This document shows, one piece after another, positions 51,735 through 59,323 of a DNA stretch of 64,000 nt. The stretch comes from an uncultured Chloroflexia bacterium (GTDB taxonomy: Bacteria > Chloroflexota > Limnocylindria > Limnocylindrales > CSP1-4). The notes beneath the pieces are model-generated. The model searched no databases, was not told where the DNA came from, and was given only the letters and a program-made list of their open reading frames with translations. The stretch is taken from contig CAWHDR010000001.1 in the NCBI GenBank assembly GCA_963828165.1, positions 1,312,001 through 1,376,000 on the forward strand, given 5' to 3'. Within the stretch, counting starts at the first letter, position 1. Each line of letters begins with the position of its first letter. The translations under genes and the position numbers were made by a program.

Positions 51735-53921
51735 TCAGGCCTCGCGCACCGCCGGCACGAACAGGCCCACGAGCCCGGTGAACATCGTCAGCAGCCCGAA
51801 GGCCACCAGGACGATGGTGACCCCGACCACCTCCGTGAGGACTCCGCCGACCGCCATGGCGAACGTCATCGATCCGAACACCAGCGCACTCCGGAAGCCA
51901 GCCACGCGGCCCAGGAGCTCCTGCGGCGTCCGTTCCTGGAACAGCGTCTGGCTCGGGATCAGGAAGACCATGTTGGCGATGCCGGCCCCGAACGCGAAGC
52001 CGAGCACAAGCACGAGGTTGCCACTCAACGCGAGCAGGGTGATGAGGAGGCCGAAGAACGCGTAGCCCGCGATGATCATGTGGCCTTTGGCGAACCGCAT
52101 GCCGATGAGGCCGATGACGAAGCCGCCCAGCAGGTTGCCGGCACCCTGGCCGGTCTCGATGAAGGCGTAGACGGCCTCCCATCCGAGCGGGCCTTCGCCG
52201 AACATCTCCCTGGCGAAGACCGGTGTCAACGCGAGCAAGACGCCGACCGTCAACTGGGCGACAGCCGCCTGGATGGTGTTGGCCAACAGCACGGGTTCCC
52301 CGCGGAGGAATCGCCAGCCGGCCTTCATCTCGCCGAAGAACCCGGGGGCGTCGTCGACGGCGGCGGCCGCGACCGGCATGGCGACCGGCTCGGGGCCTGG
52401 CGCGTCGAGGACCGACTGGACGTCACGGACCATCGAGTCGATGGGCTTGTCGTCAGCGGCGACCTCGGTCGCTTCGTCCGTGGCCCCCGCGTGGCTTCGG
52501 GCGTGGACCACGATCGTGCCCAGGAGGATCGCGGAAGCCGCGTAGGTTGCCGCGTCCAGCCAGAACGCGATCGGCAATGCCGGGCCCAGGGCGGCGACGA
52601 AGAGGCCCGCCAGGGGATAGCCGATGACGTCGGCCAGGGTCTCGCCGACCCACAGGGCCGAGTTCGCCGTCAGGAGCTCGTCCGGGCGGACGATCTGCGG
52701 CAGGATCGCGATGCGCGCCGGGCGGAAGAAGATCGAGATCGTGGTCAGCACGAAGACCAGCGGGTAGACGAGGATGATATTCGTCACGATGGCTATCGGG
52801 ATCAACAGCACGGTCGCCGCGCGCAGAAGGTCGCTCACGACGAGGACGTCCTTATGGTCCCAGCGATCGACGAGGGTACCGGCGATCGGGCTGAACAGGA
52901 GGTTCGGAAGGGTCGCCGTGACGAACACCAGGGCCGTCGCGAGCGCCGATCCCGTCGTGACCAGCACGGCCGCCGCCAGCGCGAGCTGATGGATCCGATC
53001 GCCGAACAGCGAGATCAGCTGTCCGGCCCACAACGAGGTGAATGAACCGTTGAGCCCGAGGCGGACATACGGGTGCGCGCGGACGCGCTCCAGCACCTCG
53101 GGAGAGGGGAACGGAAGGGTGATGGTCGGGGTGGCGCTCGACTCTGCGCGCTCGATGTAGGCGCCCGGCAGCGGCGCCAGGGCCGGCGCCGCAAGTCCCG
53201 GTGCCGAGCCGCCGAGCATCCTGGGTCGTTGCAGCCCGGCCGTTCCCCGCAGCGACGGCGTCAAGCCGGTCTCGGCGGGGACGCCACGACCCGTGCCCTG
53301 CCTCGGGAGGCGAGCCGTCCCGGCCAGGCCGGCGAGCCGCTCGTAGACCGCGGCCTCCTCGCGCTCCTCGACCTTCGTCGGGACACGGACGACAGCGGCG
53401 AACAGGAAGAACGCCAGGCCGGCGGTGAGGAACAGGTCGCCGAGCGAGGCGACGTTCTGGATGATCGGGATCGGGATCGGGATGATGTCGCCGAGGACCA
53501 GCGCCCGCAGGAAGAAATCGGAGGCCTCGCCCGGCACGATGATGTGCAGCGCGCTCGTCACGTCCTGGGGAGTGAGCCCGGCGGCGTCCAGGCTGGTAGC
53601 CCAGATCGGCATGTAGCCGCCATTGAGCACGATGACCATCCCGTTGAGCAGCACGCCGACGAACGTGACGCTGAGCCCCGGGTAGAACCGGTTGACCCAC
53701 AGGCCGATCAGGAGGAGAACGAACCCGGTCGCGAGTAGGGGGGCGCGCAGCATGTCGACGACGTCGACGCCCGCGTTCAGCAGGGCCTCCGTCCCGAATC
53801 GGACGATGACGGCCGCGACGAGCAGCAGCGGCCAGCGCAGCTGGATGTTGCCGAGATTGTCCAGGCGCCCACCCGCCCGGAGGCCGAGTAGCAGACCGAG
53901 AAGGATCCCCGCGATCAGCAC
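51735..53921 (-). CDS. DUF5317-MFS transporter fusion protein
   Basis: N-terminal NGGYMP...H...LGDII...SLGD (DUF5317 pattern); C-terminal MFS (WAGQLISLFGD, AGTLVDRWD, FFRPA, GRV); one uninterrupted ORF. Confidence 0.85.
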   Translation of the reverse strand: MLIAGILLGLLLGLRAGGRLDNLGNIQLRWPLLLVAAVIVRFGTEALLNAGVDVVDMLRAPLLATGFVLLLIGLWVNRFYPGLSVTFVGVLLNGMVIVLNGGYMPIWATSLDAAGLTPQDVTSALHIIVPGEASDFFLRALVLGDIIPIPIPIIQNVASLGDLFLTAGLAFFLFAAVVRVPTKVEEREEAAVYERLAGLAGTARLPRQGTGRGVPAETGLTPSLRGTAGLQRPRMLGGSAPGLAAPALAPLPGAYIERAESSATPTITLPFPSPEVLERVRAHPYVRLGLNGSFTSLWAGQLISLFGDRIHQLALAAAVLVTTGSALATALVFVTATLPNLLFSPIAGTLVDRWDHKDVLVVSDLLRAATVLLIPIAIVTNIILVYPLVFVLTTISIFFRPARIAILPQIVRPDELLTANSALWVGETLADVIGYPLAGLFVAALGPALPIAFWLDAATYAASAILLGTIVVHARSHAGATDEATEVAADDKPIDSMVRDVQSVLDAPGPEPVAMPVAAAAVDDAPGFFGEMKAGWRFLRGEPVLLANTIQAAVAQLTVGVLLALTPVFAREMFGEGPLGWEAVYAFIETGQGAGNLLGGFVIGLIGMRFAKGHMIIAGYAFFGLLITLLALSGNLVLVLGFAFGAGIANMVFLIPSQTLFQERTPQELLGRVAGFRSALVFGSMTFAMAVGGVLTEVVGVTIVLVAFGLLTMFTGLVGLFVPAVREA

Positions 53922-54000: not shown

Positions 54001-55414
54001 TCAGACGCGCTCGGTCGCAGACTTGGCGGTCTGGGTCGCCTCGACCGGGGTGGAGCTGGCCATCCGGGCCGCCGCCTGGCCGATGAGGGGGATCGGCTTC
54101 GGCTGGAACGTGCCGCCCGGGTCGACGACTCCTTCGACCCAGTGCGTCTTGACGAAGGCGTCGACGACAACGGGGTCGAACTGGATGCCCGCGAACTTGC
54201 GCAGCTCGCCGAGGGCCTGTTCCAGTGTCAAGGGGGTCATGCGATACGGGCGCGCGGCGGTCATGGCCTCGAAGGCGTCCGCCACATGGAGGATCCGAGC
54301 GAGTTTCGGGATTTCGTCACCGATCAGTCGGTCCGGATAACCCGAGCCGTTGTACCACTCGTGGTGGTGCCGGATGATCGGCAGCTCGGGGGCCAGCTTG
54401 GTGACCGGCGCGATGATCTGCGCGCCAAGCACTGGGTGCGAATTCATGACCATGCGCTCGTCCCTGGTCAGCCGTTCTGCCTTCTTGAGGACGCTGTCCG
54501 GCACGCCGATCTTTCCGACATCGTGGAGCAGGCCGCCCCATTCGAGGGCCTCGAGCTCAGCGTCGCCGACCCGCATGACGCGCCCGATATCTACGGAAAT
54601 CTCTTTCACCCGGACGGAGTGCTTCGAGGTGTACGGATCGCGCTTGTCGACGGCCTCCGCCAACGCTCCGATCGTCTGCGTGAACATGTCGCGCATCTCG
54701 ACGAAGCGCTCGTACCTAGGCGCGTGGTGTACAGCGGGAGCTGCAAACAACGCCGTAGCCCACCAATGGACAGTTCGTAAACAAGGGCCATCAGCCACGC
54801 CAATGGGGCGAGAGCGAGATCACGGCGCTCGAGATGCCTCGCGAGTCACCTATCAAGACGCCTAGTACTGTTCTGCCCAGTGCGCAACCAAGCGAGCAGA
54901 TTGAGGTCAACAGCGAAGTTGGAAGACATGAAAAGGCGGCCGCGACCATTGCAGTGACGAACTCAGCAACGGGGCCGCCCCAGATCAACATGAGTCCCTC
55001 GCGGAGCGTTCCCGCTAGGACCGCCGGGATGACCAACCCAGCGTGATTGGAAAGAGTGCCGTACCAGGGAATGCGCCCGCGAATCTCGCGAATCTCGGTT
55101 GTGCCCACCGCGGCGACCCACACGCCAACGGCCGGCCCCCCAAGGACATCGACGGCCATGATCGGTGCGACCGCGACCGCTTACGTGCGTCCCTCGTGGC
55201 AGCCGGACAGGAAATGCAGACGCCAATGAGCGTGAGAATCGTCCAGAACGCCACACCCAGCAAATACTCAAGTTCCGTTGGGTCTGATGGGGGCGTTGAC
55301 GTCGAGCCGAGCCGCGATCCCATGATCGGGCGGGAAAACGAGTGTCGTGGCAATCAGTGCAAGCGCACCACGGCCACGACACCGTGCGATATAGAGCTTG
55401 AGAGACTTCGGCAT
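54001..55414 (-). CDS. Membrane-sensor HD-GYP phosphodiesterase (N-terminal half frameshifted)
   Basis: MPKSLKLYIA... followed by several TM fragments; DPYTSKHS, LLHDVGKIG, HHHEWYNGSGYPD and ADAFEAMT..RPYR motifs. Confidence 0.88.
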
Positions 55415-55486
55415 TCTTAGGCCTGTGCGGTCAGCATCCTGATGACTGTAGCGCCTAGTTGGCGGAACAGTCATGGGCTGTCGGTA

Positions 55487-55577
55487 CTAAAAGCCCTTGA
55501 GCGATGCTCCTCCAGCAAGCGCGATCAGTCCCGACGCTTGTGAGCGTCATCGCGATGCGCATGAATCGGGCTTTCAT
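55487..55577 (-). CDS. Small signal-peptide-like ORF (~29 aa), candidate signalling propeptide
   Basis: Reads MKARFMRIAMTLTSVGLIALAGGASLKGF* after removing one G from the G-run at 55530-55532. Lies between the riboswitch and the HD-GYP gene. Confidence 0.65.
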
Positions 55578-55663
55578 GTGAGTGGTACCTACCAGCCCTT
55601 ATGCGGAGCTATTGGGAGCCACGCTCGTTCCTCCTTTGCGGCCCTCGCATCCCTGGGGGAACA

Positions 55664-55695
55664 CGAAAACCGACCTGACTCTTGGTCGGTCGGTT
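55664..55695 (-). terminator. Riboswitch expression-platform terminator
   Basis: AACCGACC-GAC-CAAGA-GTC-A-GGTCGGTT-TTCGTGTT; the 5' arm overlaps the aptamer 3' end. Confidence 0.75.
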
Positions 55696-55757
55696 GCACT
55701 AATCGCTCTGCCTCACCCCAAGTGCCCATTTCAGGTGTGGCTTCTGCGCGTCCGAGC
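55685..55757 (-). ncRNA. c-di-GMP-II riboswitch
   Basis: CUCGGACGCGCAGAAGCCACACCUGAAAUGGGCACUUGGGGUGAGGCAGAGCGAUUAGUGCAACCGACCGAC. Shows GAA/GA kink-turn elements, a UGGGCAC loop, the GCAC:GUGC pseudoknot, the 3' AGUGCAACCG signature and P1 UCGG:CCGA. Confidence 0.85.
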
Positions 55758-55803
55758 GTATTTGCCTTGCTTCCTAGTACTGGGGTACTAGCAAGTAACC
55801 GGG

Positions 55804-55833
55804 ACCTTAAGGATGTCGTACCTGTACGGTCAA
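55804..55833 (-). promoter_or_regulatory. Putative sigma70 promoter for the riboswitch leader
   Basis: TTGACC-18 nt-TAAGGT. Confidence 0.55.
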
Positions 55834-55853
55834 TACGGCACCTTACCTATCCG

Positions 55854-58800
55854 CTACAGCGAATCAAGCGAAGGGGTTCGACGCCGAGCTCCTCGCGCAT
55901 GAACGTGGCGTAATGGGCATATTGCTCAGCTGCCGCCGCATGGGCTCCGCTCACGCGATACAGGCGGAGCAATGAAACCTCGATCTGTTCGGCCGTTTCA
56001 TCCACATCTAGTGCGCGCCTCGCGATGCGGATGCCACGGTCGTAGTGACCCGAGGTGAAGTCGTCGAGGACTGACCGCTCGACGATTTCCAGATAGGTCG
56101 CGTGGAGCGAGTCGCGATATGCACTGGCCCATTCCTCGTACTCGAAGTCGAGTGCGAAATCGCCCGCGGTAAAGAGGCGTGAGCCGCTCCACGTCGTCGG
56201 GGCTGGGATGCGGCGGCAAGTCGCGGACCACTCGCCGGCAATCGACGCTCCTGGCGGTAACGAGCTCTGGATCCAGCCAGATCACGTCGGAGTCGTGGTG
56301 GACGTACCCGGGCGACAGGTCTTCCGAGTACTGCTCTTCGAACACGCGTCGCAGGAAGTACAGCGTTTGATTGAGCGAGTTGATCGCGATCTCCGGGTCC
56401 AATTCTGGCCACAGAGCATCAAGAACCTGGTCCCGCGTCGCGGACATCTCGGGCTTGTGATAGTAGGAAGCACAGAAGCGCGAGGACCTTTCTCCGCACG
56501 GAAGTCCCGGCGATGTCGCGCTCGCCTACACTGAGGCTTACTCTGCCTTGGTCCTCGATCTTGGACCCGAGGCGCGAGTCTCGCGCGAGCGATCGGCCGA
56601 GGTTCGCTGCCTCTCTTGTCCGCCCGCTAGATTTTGCGAACCGTCGAAGCCGAGGGATGTCGGAATTATCGCCGATCTCCTCGAGCAGACTAGCTGCTGC
56701 GACGTTCATCGATCCCTCGTTCGGGAGATAGCGATTCGCGTAAAGCTCGTCTGCCATCTCTCAGGGTGCATAGCGGCGGCATGCGCTACAGAGGTCTTGC
56801 GACTCGGAACTTAAAGACGCGAGTCGAGATCGCCAGGAGGTCCGCCAGAAACGTCAGGTGCCATGGATGAGAAGTGCCAATGGTGCGGATGGCATCATCC
56901 AGCGCTTCGCGGCCAGAGGCTATACCCACCGAGCAGTTCTCCGACGCGACGCATCGAATCGGCGCCTTGCGCGGCCGCCTGTGCGGTGGCCCGTCCAGCC
57001 GAACTCCCAGCGTCCTGATCGCCTCGGGCAACTTTGAGGTAAGCGTGAGTGACGGCAAGAAATGCGTCCTGAGCAACCACCGTTGGCAGTCCGGCTGGAT
57101 AGTCGGCCAAGGCTTCTGCGGCTTCATCGAACCGCCTCTGCCTCAAGTACAGCTTTGCCCTTGTTAGGGCCAGCAGCCGCCGATCGGCCCTTGTGATCGT
57201 CGACTGATGCCCAACTCGGTCAAGGATCGCCAATGCGGACGCGCGCGACGCGAATGTGTCCAGAATTTCGGCTGCCTCCGCATATGTCTCGTTGTGTAAG
57301 TGGCCCGCCTCAGCATCCAGAAGGGAATCGATCAACTCCCTTGCTTGTTGGATGCTGCCGAGCCTCGCGAGAATCTGGGCCTTCGCCATCGTCGCCGAAG
57401 CGAGCTCCATCAGGCCCGAAGCAGCTCTCGAATGCGTCCAGCGCTTCCTCAACTTCCCGTCGCCGCATCCTGAAGTCGATCCTGGATGATGGAGTTGTAG
57501 GCCAAGTTGGCCATCGTGACTGCGAAATGGTGCGGGCGGTCCGTCCTCTGGTCGCGCGCCATGGCGCGGAGCCGCCGATTGATCGCATCGATGTCAGATG
57601 CCGTCCTCGCGTGAAGGATCGCAACCGTGACCTCCGCGATCGAACCGAAGATTTGGTCTGTGGTGTCCGTGAGTCTTTCTGCCAGGATCAACGCTCGGTC
57701 GCCATCGCCGGAGTTGAAGTACAGCGTCACCAAGTTCAACAGCGCGTGGTCGCGCTGGACCGGGTCGGTCGTTGGCGAGTCGAGGACGGCCTGTGATGCG
57801 GCGATCGCGGCTTGGTAGTCGCCGTGCTGCATATCGACGCGGCTGAGGATGAGGTCGAAGCCGGGTGGACGCAGTTCGGCAGGGATCGGTCCGATGAACG
57901 TTTCGGCGAGGGCGTATTGGCCCTTCCCCATGATCGTCGGGATCGCTTCGCCGACCACCTTCAGGACCGCGTCCGTGTCGCCCGCCTCGCGGTAGTGGTA
58001 CGCGGCGATCCGCCAGTCCGTGACCGCGGCGGCCGCCGCCGTCCGCCGATGCAGGTCGGCGACCGCGGCCGCTCCGTCCGTGGTGCGAAGCCGGGCCTCG
58101 AGGAACTCGCGCACGAGCGGGTGATACCGCTGGTGCGTCCTTGGCCCACCCGACAGACGGCTCAGGAGTGTCAGTCGCTCCGCGGCTGCCGTGAGTCGCG
58201 CGACCTCAGCCGGTTCGCGATTCGATACGACCTCTGCGAGATCAGGTGTGACGACCTGGAGGATCGACGTTTCCATGAGGAAGCGCTGCAGGTCGTCGTC
58301 GAGATCGCCGACGACTTCCTCGGCCAGGTAGTCGTACATCTCGTGGTCTGCGCCGTTGAGGCTCCGAACGAATCGACGGATCTCCGAAGGGGTGCGGTCA
58401 CGTAGTGCTGCCTGGACGAGCTGCAACGACGCGATCCACCCCTCGGTCCGAACCGCCAGATCCGCCAGGACGTCGGCGTCCAGGCGCCGTCCGTACGTCT
58501 CCGTGAACAGCTGTGCGGTCTCGGATGGGTCGAATCGAAGCTCGCCCGTCCCGAGCTCCGCCACTTCACCGACCGCTCGCAGCCTGGCCAACGGCACCGA
58601 CGGTTGCCGGCGGCTCGCGAACACGATGGTCAGGCGCTCAGGCGCCCGCGCGAGGAGCTCGCGGGTGATATGCCGCACATCGGCTGCGTCATCAACCAGG
58701 TGGAAGTCGTCCAGGATCAAGACCGCGCCATTCGCCGTGATCGTCGGCAGCTCGCGGATGAAGCTGTCGAGCACGACCTCCCGCCCGGGACCGCTCGCGG

Positions 58801-59323
58801 CGATCTCAGACAGCAAGCCGACGGTCGCCGGCGCAAATGTCGGATCGTGCTCCCGGCCCGCGGCGACGAGATGGTGCAGGAACGAGACCCAATCGCGATC
58901 GTCATCGTCCAGCCGGTACCACAGGGTCCGCATCCGGGACCGACGCGAGAAATCGGCCAGGAGGGTCGTCTTGCCGTATCCGGCATCGGCGAGCACGAGG
59001 ACGACGCGCCCGTGCACCTTCGCGTGCAGCCAATCCAGCAGCCGCGGCCGTTCGAGGGTTTGATCGCGCAGTGCGGGACGCTGGACCTTTGCCAGCTGGA
59101 TGGGGAAGCCGTTGACTTCGTCGCGCAGCGGGCCGCTCCTGGGTTGGGCGGGATCCGGCCCCCGCCCGGGACCTACGGGGATCGGCGACCGCTCCGGTAC
59201 GGGGCGCAGGGATGGGCGAGTCTCGGGCCGGCCGAACGATAGAGACCGTTCATGTGGGGTGTCAACGACCGGATCCGGGGGATGGAGGTGCCGCATGCGC
59301 GCATGGTGGCGCGCGACGCTCAA
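55854..59323 (-). CDS. MalT-like STAND NTPase with TPR-like region and C-terminal wHTH/BTAD transcriptional activator (frameshifted; start uncertain)
   Basis: LERPRLLDWL, ADAGYGKTTLL, LILDDFH, TEGW and YHPLVREFL motifs; C-terminal RRKVLALLCFLL, DALWPE, YRG and ELGVEP. Confidence 0.82.

Follow-up and report, generated by a model that had tools for sequence, protein, structure and literature searches.

A conserved 29-codon gene between a predicted c-di-GMP-II riboswitch and a MASE9/HD-GYP phosphodiesterase gene in uncultured Chloroflexota

What is the function of a reading frame of only 29 codons that lies between a riboswitch for cyclic diguanylate (c-di-GMP) and the gene of an enzyme that degrades the same molecule? 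This question is raised by a locus in a stretch of 64,000 nucleotides (nt) from an uncultured Chloroflexia bacterium (GenBank assembly GCA_963828165.1, contig CAWHDR010000001.1, positions 1,312,001 to 1,376,000), hereafter called the window, to which all positions below refer. The open reading frame (ORF), here termed ORF2, had been singled out in a first-pass annotation of the letters alone, which likened it to a lipoprotein signal peptide carrying glycine where cysteine would be. Beyond that description, its surroundings include a c-di-GMP-II riboswitch upstream, a second ORF of 10 codons (ORF1), and a gene downstream for a protein with MASE9 and HD-GYP domains. The variation among relatives marks ORF2 as a genuine protein-coding micro-gene under purifying selection at the amino-acid level. 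Because this gene sits between a c-di-GMP riboswitch and a c-di-GMP-degrading enzyme, it probably belongs to that signalling loop. We favor, at roughly even confidence, the reading that ORF2 encodes a single-pass membrane microprotein that is induced by c-di-GMP and modulates the neighboring MASE9/HD-GYP enzyme.

The assembled window carries the frame in altered form. As assembled, the ORF at 55577..55455 of the minus strand has 40 codons and reads MKARFMRIAMTLTSVGTDRACWRSIAQGLLVPTAHDCSAN before its stop. When one base is dropped from GTCGGGACT (plus-strand GGGA, 55528-55531), the frame becomes MKARFMRIAMTLTSVGLIALAGGASLKGF and ends in TAG at 55489-55487, which agrees in both peptide and stop position with the 29-residue frame that the first-pass annotation had proposed. 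That annotation had treated the correction as an assumption, and the assumption was right: in two alignments, all 11 and all 5 relatives are without the extra base. At this site relatives read GTCGGA-CTG, GTCGGG-CTG, or GTCGCG-ATG. The nearest relatives read ...SVGLIALAGGASLRGF, and the corrected window peptide differs from theirs only by T13 (S13) and K27 (R27). Likewise, short-read contigs of relatives that cover 55528/55529 omit one base in X1 (one contig), X2 (one), and X15 (two), and the single X16 contig across this point has a substitution instead of a missing base; coming from relatives only, these contigs repeat the comparative evidence on the extra base.

No public sequencing run holds the window strain, the best share being 0.21. 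One RNA-library contig from X16 (record 17, 55205-55492, ~98% identity) carries 5 gaps in 287 nt and ends short of 55528. Other RNA-library contigs from relatives span ORF1 and ORF2 together (X15 records 11-13, X16 record 19); such contigs attest presence in a library rather than prove transcription, and their depths cannot rank the parts of the locus. The absence of ORF2 from the ORF track, which had been remarked upon at the outset, is accounted for by the frameshift and by its small size, and gene callers elsewhere label the same product a "hypothetical protein."

A 29-codon ORF is by itself not beyond chance, and the case for a gene therefore rests on conservation. Of 38 loci from the same genus, 28 keep the 29-codon ORF intact; among the other ten, nine are in few-contig assemblies of long-read type, and one has an in-frame TAG. 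Among 102 distinct loci, a start codon (ATG in 77, GTG in 16) lies exactly 29 codons before the stop in 93, and the stop is TAG in 96, TGA in 5, and TAA in 1. Column entropies at codon positions 1, 2, and 3 of the same-genus loci are 0.53, 0.24, and 1.18 over the ORF, and 0.29, 0.12, and 1.22 over its last 18 codons. Arg27, for example, is encoded by AGG, AGA, CGG, CGA, and CGC.

The tail A-x-AGGASL-x-GF is nearly invariant, and the C-terminal AGGASL[KR]GF is the best-conserved part of the peptide. Residues M1, G22, and A24 are invariant, and R4, R7, A19, A21, G23, S25, L26, G28, and F29 are nearly so. The first-pass annotation had let its proposal stand or fall with conservation of the C-terminal pattern LAGGA-x-x-x-F, and this pattern is indeed kept in the 73 representative 29-mers (A21 in 70, G22 in 73, G23 in 72, A24 in 73, and F29 in 63).

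It is very improbable that ORF2 is no gene at all, its frame being open by chance and its conservation stemming from an RNA or DNA element of the riboswitch leader. The region does lie within a structured leader, and the TAGTAC just after the stop is conserved and pairs in a downstream hairpin. However, variation is concentrated at third codon positions, with amino acids kept through different codons, and the identities of the start and stop codons vary while their positions stay fixed. ORF2 also starts at a codon of its own, preceded in most genera by a separate Shine-Dalgarno sequence (GGAGG, 7-9 nt upstream), and the frame is open over 29 codons across 26 genera.

The in-frame TAG mentioned above occurs at codon 13 of ORF2 in locus L010 (G004:C229), which comes from a many-contig assembly. 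This codon specifies Ser elsewhere, and the rest of the L010 frame is conserved. A sequencing error might explain the TAG, as might a genuine nonsense allele or read-through.

Searches at several taxonomic depths found ORF2 in many relatives. Within the genus, DNA searches matched 18 of 24 genomes in a first draw and 88 of 120 other genomes in a larger one, and 21 of 23 high-quality genomes when the window's own is included. A profile of the peptide matched 184 of 358 family genomes and 26 of 44 genera in the order sample, counts that include one unpublished genome (G316); in the small-genome sister family it matched 0 of 42 genomes. These counts are underestimates, since G138 scored negative yet has the cassette described below, and genus g5 is mostly negative yet has diverged versions of 28-29 codons that end YRPF or YGLF. 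Versions of 32 codons ending GGASFKGW or AGAGLRGL are found in the sister order. The peptide was present in all 20 loci taken from other genera (19 by motif, L073 by profile). When one genome per species was scanned for the pattern, 89 of the 349 candidate stretches were confirmed. Every one of the 80 loci kept has a label of Chloroflexota type, in many cases "Candidatus Limnocylindrales" or "Limnocylindria."

When 1.84 billion representative proteins were searched exhaustively with the profile, 132 matched at E<=0.001, and 73 of these are exactly 29 residues long. Most of the others are longer calls (30-89 residues) that match at their C-terminus, as fits a start called too far upstream, and a few are shorter or matched at their N-terminus. 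One hit to a 1652-residue protein is a short partial match that we take to be chance. Three of 10 exact peptides are already among public gene calls as "hypothetical protein," and the Atlas neighbors of the peptide are unnamed "hypothetical protein" clusters of 29-30 residues. No family was returned for the 29-mers by NCBIfam (3 peptides, E up to 10) or Pfam (2 peptides, E up to 1). Likewise, a full-text literature search for Limnocylindria or Chloroflexi together with c-di-GMP(-II) or riboswitch gave no paper, supplementary files lying outside that search.

By the same comparisons, ORF2 is part of a cassette that is fixed in Limnocylindria, as this class of uncultured soil Chloroflexota is labelled. 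Its elements follow one another (Table 1) as a putative promoter, a 5' hairpin, the c-di-GMP-II riboswitch with its terminator, ORF1, ORF2, a hairpin with a second promoter-like element, the MASE9/HD-GYP gene, and a DUF5317-MFS gene. The aptamer lies ~100 nt upstream of ORF2 and exceeds the Rfam gathering score of 53.5 (E=5e-11), and among the 20 loci of other genera RF01786 likewise scores above gathering in 18. The terminator overlaps with its 5' arm (55691-55684) the 3' strand of aptamer helix P1. The two pairings are mutually exclusive, and the riboswitch is therefore predicted to be an ON switch. Switches of the c-di-GMP-II class that act in this direction are known from Clostridia, and the present locus resembles RF01786 operons both in its aptamer score and in the overlap of terminator and P1.

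Table 1. Features of the cassette and its flanks in the window, given in the order in which the minus strand is read
Feature	Position	Strand	Description
STAND-type (AAA_16/TPR) and BTAD/SARP-type regulator pieces	55847-57452, 57449-59323	minus	Upstream of the cassette; split by frameshifts
-10-like hexamer TAAGGT followed by CC	55804..55809	minus	Presumed promoter P1, assigned by consensus; promoter function putative
Inverted repeat CTAGTAC-CCCA-GTACTAG	55774..55791	minus	Perfect 7-4-7 repeat between promoter P1 and aptamer
c-di-GMP-II riboswitch aptamer (RF01786)	55679..55762	minus	60.6 bits; full model 1-84
Terminator-like hairpin GACCGACC...GGTCGG and U run	55660..55691	minus	Stem 55691..55668; conserved in relatives
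Shine-Dalgarno sequence AAGGAGG of ORF1	55630..55636	minus	6-8 nt before the start in nearly all loci
ORF1	55589..55622	minus	GTG start, 10 codons, VAPNSSAKGW then stop, with the extra base at 55601 dropped
ORF2	55487..55577	minus	29 codons and stop; reads MKARFMRIAMTLTSVGLIALAGGASLKGF then stop once one base at 55528-55531 is removed
Spacer from ORF2 stop to phosphodiesterase start	55412..55489	minus	Long imperfect hairpin and second -10-like hexamer
Second -10-like hexamer TACAGT	55445-55450	minus	Inside the spacer
MASE9 and HD-GYP phosphodiesterase gene	54001..55414	minus	MASE9 half frameshifted; HD-GYP half (54798..54001) intact
DUF5317 and MFS_3/MFS_1 membrane protein gene	51735..53921	minus	Next gene, same direction

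The elements in front of the aptamer are also retained. In 93 of 98 loci, a TAnnnT-CC sequence (TATAGT in 54, TAAAGT in 18, and others) precedes the aptamer by 38-44 nt, and an exact inverted repeat of 6-7 nt, mostly CTAGTAC or TAGTAC, is present in 77 of the 98. This repeat may form a stabilizing leader hairpin or serve as an operator. Its heptamer CTAGTAC recurs at the ORF2 stop (TTCTAGTAC).

RF01786 riboswitches are widespread in Chloroflexota, where 26 of 151 genomes have a match above the cut-off. In the other classes sampled, the riboswitch precedes secreted proteins with ordinary signal peptides and no such micro-ORFs, and only the Limnocylindria-type lineage places it before twin micro-ORFs and its own phosphodiesterase gene. 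A second RF01786 match (G000:C5:92854-92942, L014) scored 40.4 bits, which is below gathering; it lies in GC-rich, coding-like sequence with no cassette and is probably due to chance.

ORF1, the first of the two micro-genes, terminates early in the window as assembled (VAPNSSA then stop). It could be parsed in 96 of the 102 loci, with 9 codons in 28 and 10 codons in 52, and its consensus is [VM]xPExxxK[GAPS][WFY] followed by the stop. It starts with GTG in 85 of these loci and with ATG in 11; it stops with TAG in 81, TAA in 15, and TGA in none, mostly 9-14 nt upstream of the ORF2 start. By comparison, TGA ends 66% of long ORFs in this genome of 69.6% guanine-cytosine (GC) content, and the two micro-ORFs are thus both skewed toward TAG and TAA. 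Genus g5 is an exception, with TGA stops on both.

A C-terminus of basic, small, and aromatic residues is common to ORF1 and ORF2 in all lineages seen, while the codons differ, which suggests that selection acts on the peptides and not on the RNA. Concerted evolution of the two ends was considered and set aside as a general rule, because nucleotide identity is striking only in L057 and L061, which belong to one genus. In the related loci L005, L006, L129, and L133 (genus g1) the ORF1 unit is doubled in frame to 17 codons, both units ending K[GA]W. In L197 (G146, genus g5) it is tripled as a 27-nt tandem repeat, and this locus also has N bases.

The spacer between ORF2 and the enzyme gene is 65-90 nt long across loci, and its hairpin spans roughly 65 nt. 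In single-sequence folds, the window spacer has a minimum free energy (MFE) of -25 kcal/mol (z=-2.5), and 11 relatives give z-scores from -1.7 to -6.2. In most relatives, pairing at the hairpin base (GUACG...CGUAC) sets in with the G of the ORF2 stop; the window hairpin starts a few bases later. RNAalifold, applied to a MAFFT alignment of 56 spacers, returned no consensus structure (3 pairs, no covariation), and the hairpin is thus drawn from the single-sequence folds together with compensatory changes judged by eye. It can also be drawn in the spacers of L026, L032, L094, and other loci, and a conserved hexamer sits near its top. A TA[GC]AGT-type hexamer is present in 86 of 89 spacers, 21-35 nt before the phosphodiesterase start. 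The two TAnnnT-type hexamers of the cassette presumably represent two promoters, and the spacer may act as structured RNA, as a second promoter, or in both ways.

Wherever the next gene is intact, it always encodes a MASE9/HD-GYP protein of 455-527 residues that begins MP[KR]SLKLY. Among 52 intact relatives, HD_5 is found in all 52 and MASE9 in 28 at E<=0.01 (in L065, 32.4 bits against a cut-off of 24.3). The HD half in the window matches Pfam at 1.7e-39 and is 92% identical to the L016 protein. The two halves of the enzyme differ in their evolution, the mean distance being 0.47 for MASE9 and 0.17 for the HD domain, and the sensor half is also lower in GC than the catalytic half.

Given these parts, the membrane microprotein that we favor could work as follows. 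At high c-di-GMP, aptamer helix P1 would keep the 5' arm of the terminator, and transcription would continue into ORF1 and ORF2. The 29-residue product would insert as a single helix with its basic N-terminus inside and its short [KR]GF tail outside. A face of small residues (S/A...A-x-AGGAS) would then pack against the MASE9 sensor domain within the membrane, and this contact would tune the breakdown of c-di-GMP. The result would be a feedback loop, like that of MgrB on PhoQ or of KdpF on KdpABC. The second promoter-like element before the enzyme suggests that the phosphodiesterase also has its own promoter, which may leave ORF1 and ORF2 as the strictly riboswitch-gated part of the cassette.

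The makeup of the peptide is consistent with such a membrane role. The basic n-region and hydrophobic stretch described in the first-pass annotation are well supported, with K/R at position 2, R4, and R7 preceding a hydrophobic run. The Kyte-Doolittle mean is ~1.9 over consensus residues 8-26, and the N-terminus carries a charge of +3. The invariant small residues would form a face typical of helix packing. MASE9 has been argued, by those who defined it, to bind its ligand within the membrane, on the grounds of charged intramembrane residues and poorly conserved loops (bioRxiv 10.1101/2021.11.05.467447). Distances among the peptides correlate with those among MASE9 domains when the HD domain is controlled for (partial r=0.40, a value reached in 0 of 2000 permutations), and the reverse partial correlation is r=0.19 (88 of 2000 as high). 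A co-fold of the MASE9 domain (L065, residues 1-240) with a natural N-extended form of the peptide (31 residues), given 52-row alignments for each of the two, yielded 0.26 and 0.01 against a mark of 0.32, and speaks neither for nor against a contact.

Several considerations weigh against the microprotein as an enzyme partner. Physical linkage within a single recombining block would produce the MASE9 partial correlation just as well. The proposed partner MASE9 evolves fastest, yet the peptide tail opposite it is almost invariant, and the soluble 10-residue product of ORF1 shares the [KR]-x-[WFY] end, which a membrane-partner model leaves unexplained. A cis-acting role would account equally well for a length kept strictly at 29 codons and for a hairpin that starts at the stop codon, and the A-x-A right before GG suits processing by a signal peptidase. 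Furthermore, the promoter and the ON switch are assigned at the level of consensus, and the indels in the window copy, detailed below, could reflect true decay of the locus in this strain.

The cis-acting role deserves consideration, even if we regard it as unlikely. Under this explanation, ORF1 and ORF2 are leader peptides that act while being translated, their ends slowing termination or positioning ribosomes. With a ribosome at the ORF1 stop, the start region of ORF2 would lie covered; with one at the ORF2 stop, the hairpin would come open at its base. Ribosome placement would in this way set translation or RNA processing of the phosphodiesterase message. TnaC and SpeFL are analogous leader peptides, and leader-peptide coupling occurs in plasmid repY/repZ and tap/repA. 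Much of the architecture would be expected from such a device. Both ORFs end in basic-x-aromatic residues under selection at the amino-acid level (K/R codons vary, and W/F/Y codons differ), and their lengths are fixed, at 9-10 codons in 80 of 96 loci for ORF1 and 29 codons in 93 of 102 for ORF2. The ORF1 stop is mostly within 9-14 nt of the ORF2 start, in most of 12 folds the G of the ORF2 stop is the first base of the spacer hairpin, and the stops are skewed (81 TAG and 15 TAA of 96 for ORF1, 96 TAG of 102 for ORF2) away from the TGA that predominates genome-wide.

However, the whole of ORF2 is conserved, including its basic N-terminal and hydrophobic parts, and resembles a membrane helix, which to our knowledge the known arrest peptides do not. 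In most MFE folds the Shine-Dalgarno sequence of the phosphodiesterase gene lies outside the hairpin, so there would be little to unmask, and with a second promoter-like element the enzyme would depend only in part on ORF2 translation. Four loci have an internal, conserved second KGW/KAW unit in ORF1 with no stop after it. In addition, the loci are related, and the stop-codon counts overstate their independence. A mechanism specific to TAG, acting through release factor 1 (RF1), was also considered and is weakened by the TGA stops on both ORFs in genus g5, which indicate that RF1-specific termination is not essential.

A doubtful alternative is that ORF2 encodes an exported peptide. Its product would be a precursor that consists of little more than a signal peptide, cut by type I signal peptidase after A-x-A (or after GG). 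GGASL[KR]GF or ASL[KR]GF would thereby be released outside the cell and sensed by MASE9 or another receptor, and a related peptide would come from ORF1, with the DUF5317-MFS protein as a possible exporter of either or both. The SHP/PrgQ, Phr, and agr-type systems offer likenesses. Precursors such as those of SHP, PrgQ/iCF10, ComS, and Phr/agr have 20-45 residues, with a basic N-terminus, a hydrophobic body, and activity in the C-terminal 5-9 residues. Some pheromone precursors have repeated peptide units, and in agr a variable sensor adjoins the peptide gene.

ORF2 has the corresponding layout of n-region and h-region, and as a matter of sequence pattern A19 (61 of 73) and A21 (70 of 73) fall at -3 and -1, before GG; a type I signal peptidase cut after A21 would leave a mature part of only 8 residues. 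The tail is the best-conserved part and matches that of ORF1, and the in-frame doubling or tripling of the ORF1 unit in several lineages is reminiscent of multi-copy pheromone precursors. The gene string also includes a membrane sensor and an MFS "secretion effector," and the sensor half of the enzyme has lower GC and greater divergence than its catalytic half. Residues 12-23 also resemble LSxxELxxIxGG, which we take to be the consensus of double-glycine leaders: GG, L12, S13, and L20 fit it, though the -8 residue is Ala instead of acidic.

Set against this, the putative mature peptide is almost invariant over a class with hundreds of species while the putative receptor is hypervariable, the reverse of known pherotype systems. 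ORF1 is without an export signal, and the hydrophobic stretch of ~19 residues is long enough to remain in the membrane. Among the adjacent genes (MASE9/HD-GYP, DUF5317-MFS, and STAND/BTAD), there is none for a signal peptidase, a C39 peptidase or ATP-binding cassette (ABC) exporter, or an AgrB-like or Opp protein. ORF2 differs from the SHP, PrgQ, ComS, Phr, and agr precursors in that no RRNPP or AgrB/AgrC-type gene is adjacent and in that its tail is invariant rather than diversified.

A more specific proposal along these lines, which we consider decidedly doubtful, is that the riboswitch gates a peptide layer of second-messenger control, in which the twin peptides with [KR]-G-[FW] tails are read by the hypervariable MASE9 domain, coupling c-di-GMP to a shared peptide cue. 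In this proposal ORF2 would deliver GGASL[KR]GF to the outer face of the membrane, and the ORF1 peptide would be either exported by the MFS protein or intracellular. If true, no peptide ligand of a MASE-type sensor would precede it, and Chloroflexota would have a cell-cell signal gated by c-di-GMP.

The original proposal for ORF2 was that L-A-G/G is processed as if Gly were the lipobox Cys, releasing a non-lipidated heptapeptide, and to this we assign hardly any probability. Lipoprotein processing depends on lipid modification of the lipobox Cys, and Lgt and Lsp act only on that residue, so cleavage after LAG would be without a known enzyme. ORF2 is like lipoprotein signal peptides in its n-region, its h-region, and L-A-G, but the last of these is a superficial match to the first three lipobox positions only and is expected in any helix rich in Ala, Gly, and Leu. 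The obligatory Cys is an invariant Gly at position 22 (73 of 73 representative 29-mers and 28 of 28 aligned genus members, with no Cys), and only 7 residues follow it. The suggestion that GASLKGF is released as a signal is likewise unsupported: the tail is almost invariant class-wide while MASE9 evolves fast, and a private signal would be expected to diversify. Thus, what survives of the first-pass annotation is a real ORF, its correction, the n-region and h-region, and the conserved tail; the lipobox analogy and the heptapeptide signal do not.

For the membrane microprotein that we favor, functional analogues are single-helix peptides of 29-47 residues that act in the membrane on a larger sensor or transporter, such as MgrB on PhoQ and KdpF (29 residues) in KdpFABC. 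KdpF is the first gene of the operon that it serves, and MgrB is induced by the pathway on which it feeds back. ORF2 has no sequence relationship to either, and differs in its putative partner, a c-di-GMP phosphodiesterase, and in its predicted induction by a riboswitch.

The nearest published case is that of CD1980.2 and CD2309 of C. difficile, 58-residue membrane proteins encoded behind class I c-di-GMP riboswitches (PMC13724677, Nat Commun 2026). These too are small unannotated or "hypothetical" ORFs directly behind c-di-GMP riboswitches that act by transcription termination, have a hydrophobic, membrane-associating segment, and are an output of c-di-GMP signalling. The CD1980.2 family is reported to have no homologues outside C. 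difficile. By description, CD1980.2 and CD2309 differ from ORF2 in that they have 58 residues with a C-terminal hydrophobic helix, are controlled by class I OFF switches, are multicopy and sporulation-linked, and adjoin no phosphodiesterase gene. In contrast, ORF2 has 29 residues and comes after both ORF1 and a class II switch with predicted ON behavior, and it always adjoins a MASE9/HD-GYP gene.

The locus may be a second, unrelated case, beside that of C. difficile, in which c-di-GMP riboswitches precede tiny membrane proteins, here a predicted one, which suggests that such micro-genes are a general and overlooked riboswitch output. What the membrane-embedded MASE domains of c-di-GMP enzymes detect has been a long-standing gap, and a c-di-GMP-switched peptide of 29 residues beside a MASE9/HD-GYP gene would be a concrete candidate for a MASE9 partner. 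In practical terms, the 29-position profile can be used to annotate ORF2 in hundreds of soil Chloroflexota genomes.

The base that obscured ORF2 in the window is one of many. Within 54716-56931 there are 28 indel events unique to the window (21 of them insertions, mostly of 1 nt), and two relatives at ~86% identity have 2 and 1. Besides ORF1, which carries one base too many at 55601, the events disrupt the phosphodiesterase gene in its MASE9 half and the upstream regulator gene; outside the patch, the HD-GYP half and the neighboring long genes are intact. The patch coincides with a lower-GC block (57-64%, compared with the genome-wide value given above) that is also more diverged and that covers the 3' part of the regulator gene, the riboswitch, both micro-ORFs, and the MASE9 half. 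The indels are probably long-read consensus errors in a strain-variable block; true decay keeps some probability because the window strain is in no public run. Single-base errors of this kind in long-read metagenome assemblies hide conserved micro-genes.

The genes that flank the cassette also recur in relatives. Upstream, the regulator that is split in the window is a single ORF of 510-563 residues with Trans_reg_C and BTAD domains. Downstream of the phosphodiesterase gene, a gene whose product starts MLIGGI, like that of the window's DUF5317-MFS gene, is present in L176 and L178-L181, Pfam domains having been assigned on the window copy only.

Entire cassettes can duplicate as units. In L176 (G067:C7:25200-29200) two stand in tandem, the first comprising a riboswitch, a broken ORF2, and a short MASE9-only ORF, and the second comprising an ORF2 without its own aptamer word followed by a full MASE9/HD-GYP gene. 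Genome G447 carries two complete, diverged cassettes on different contigs.

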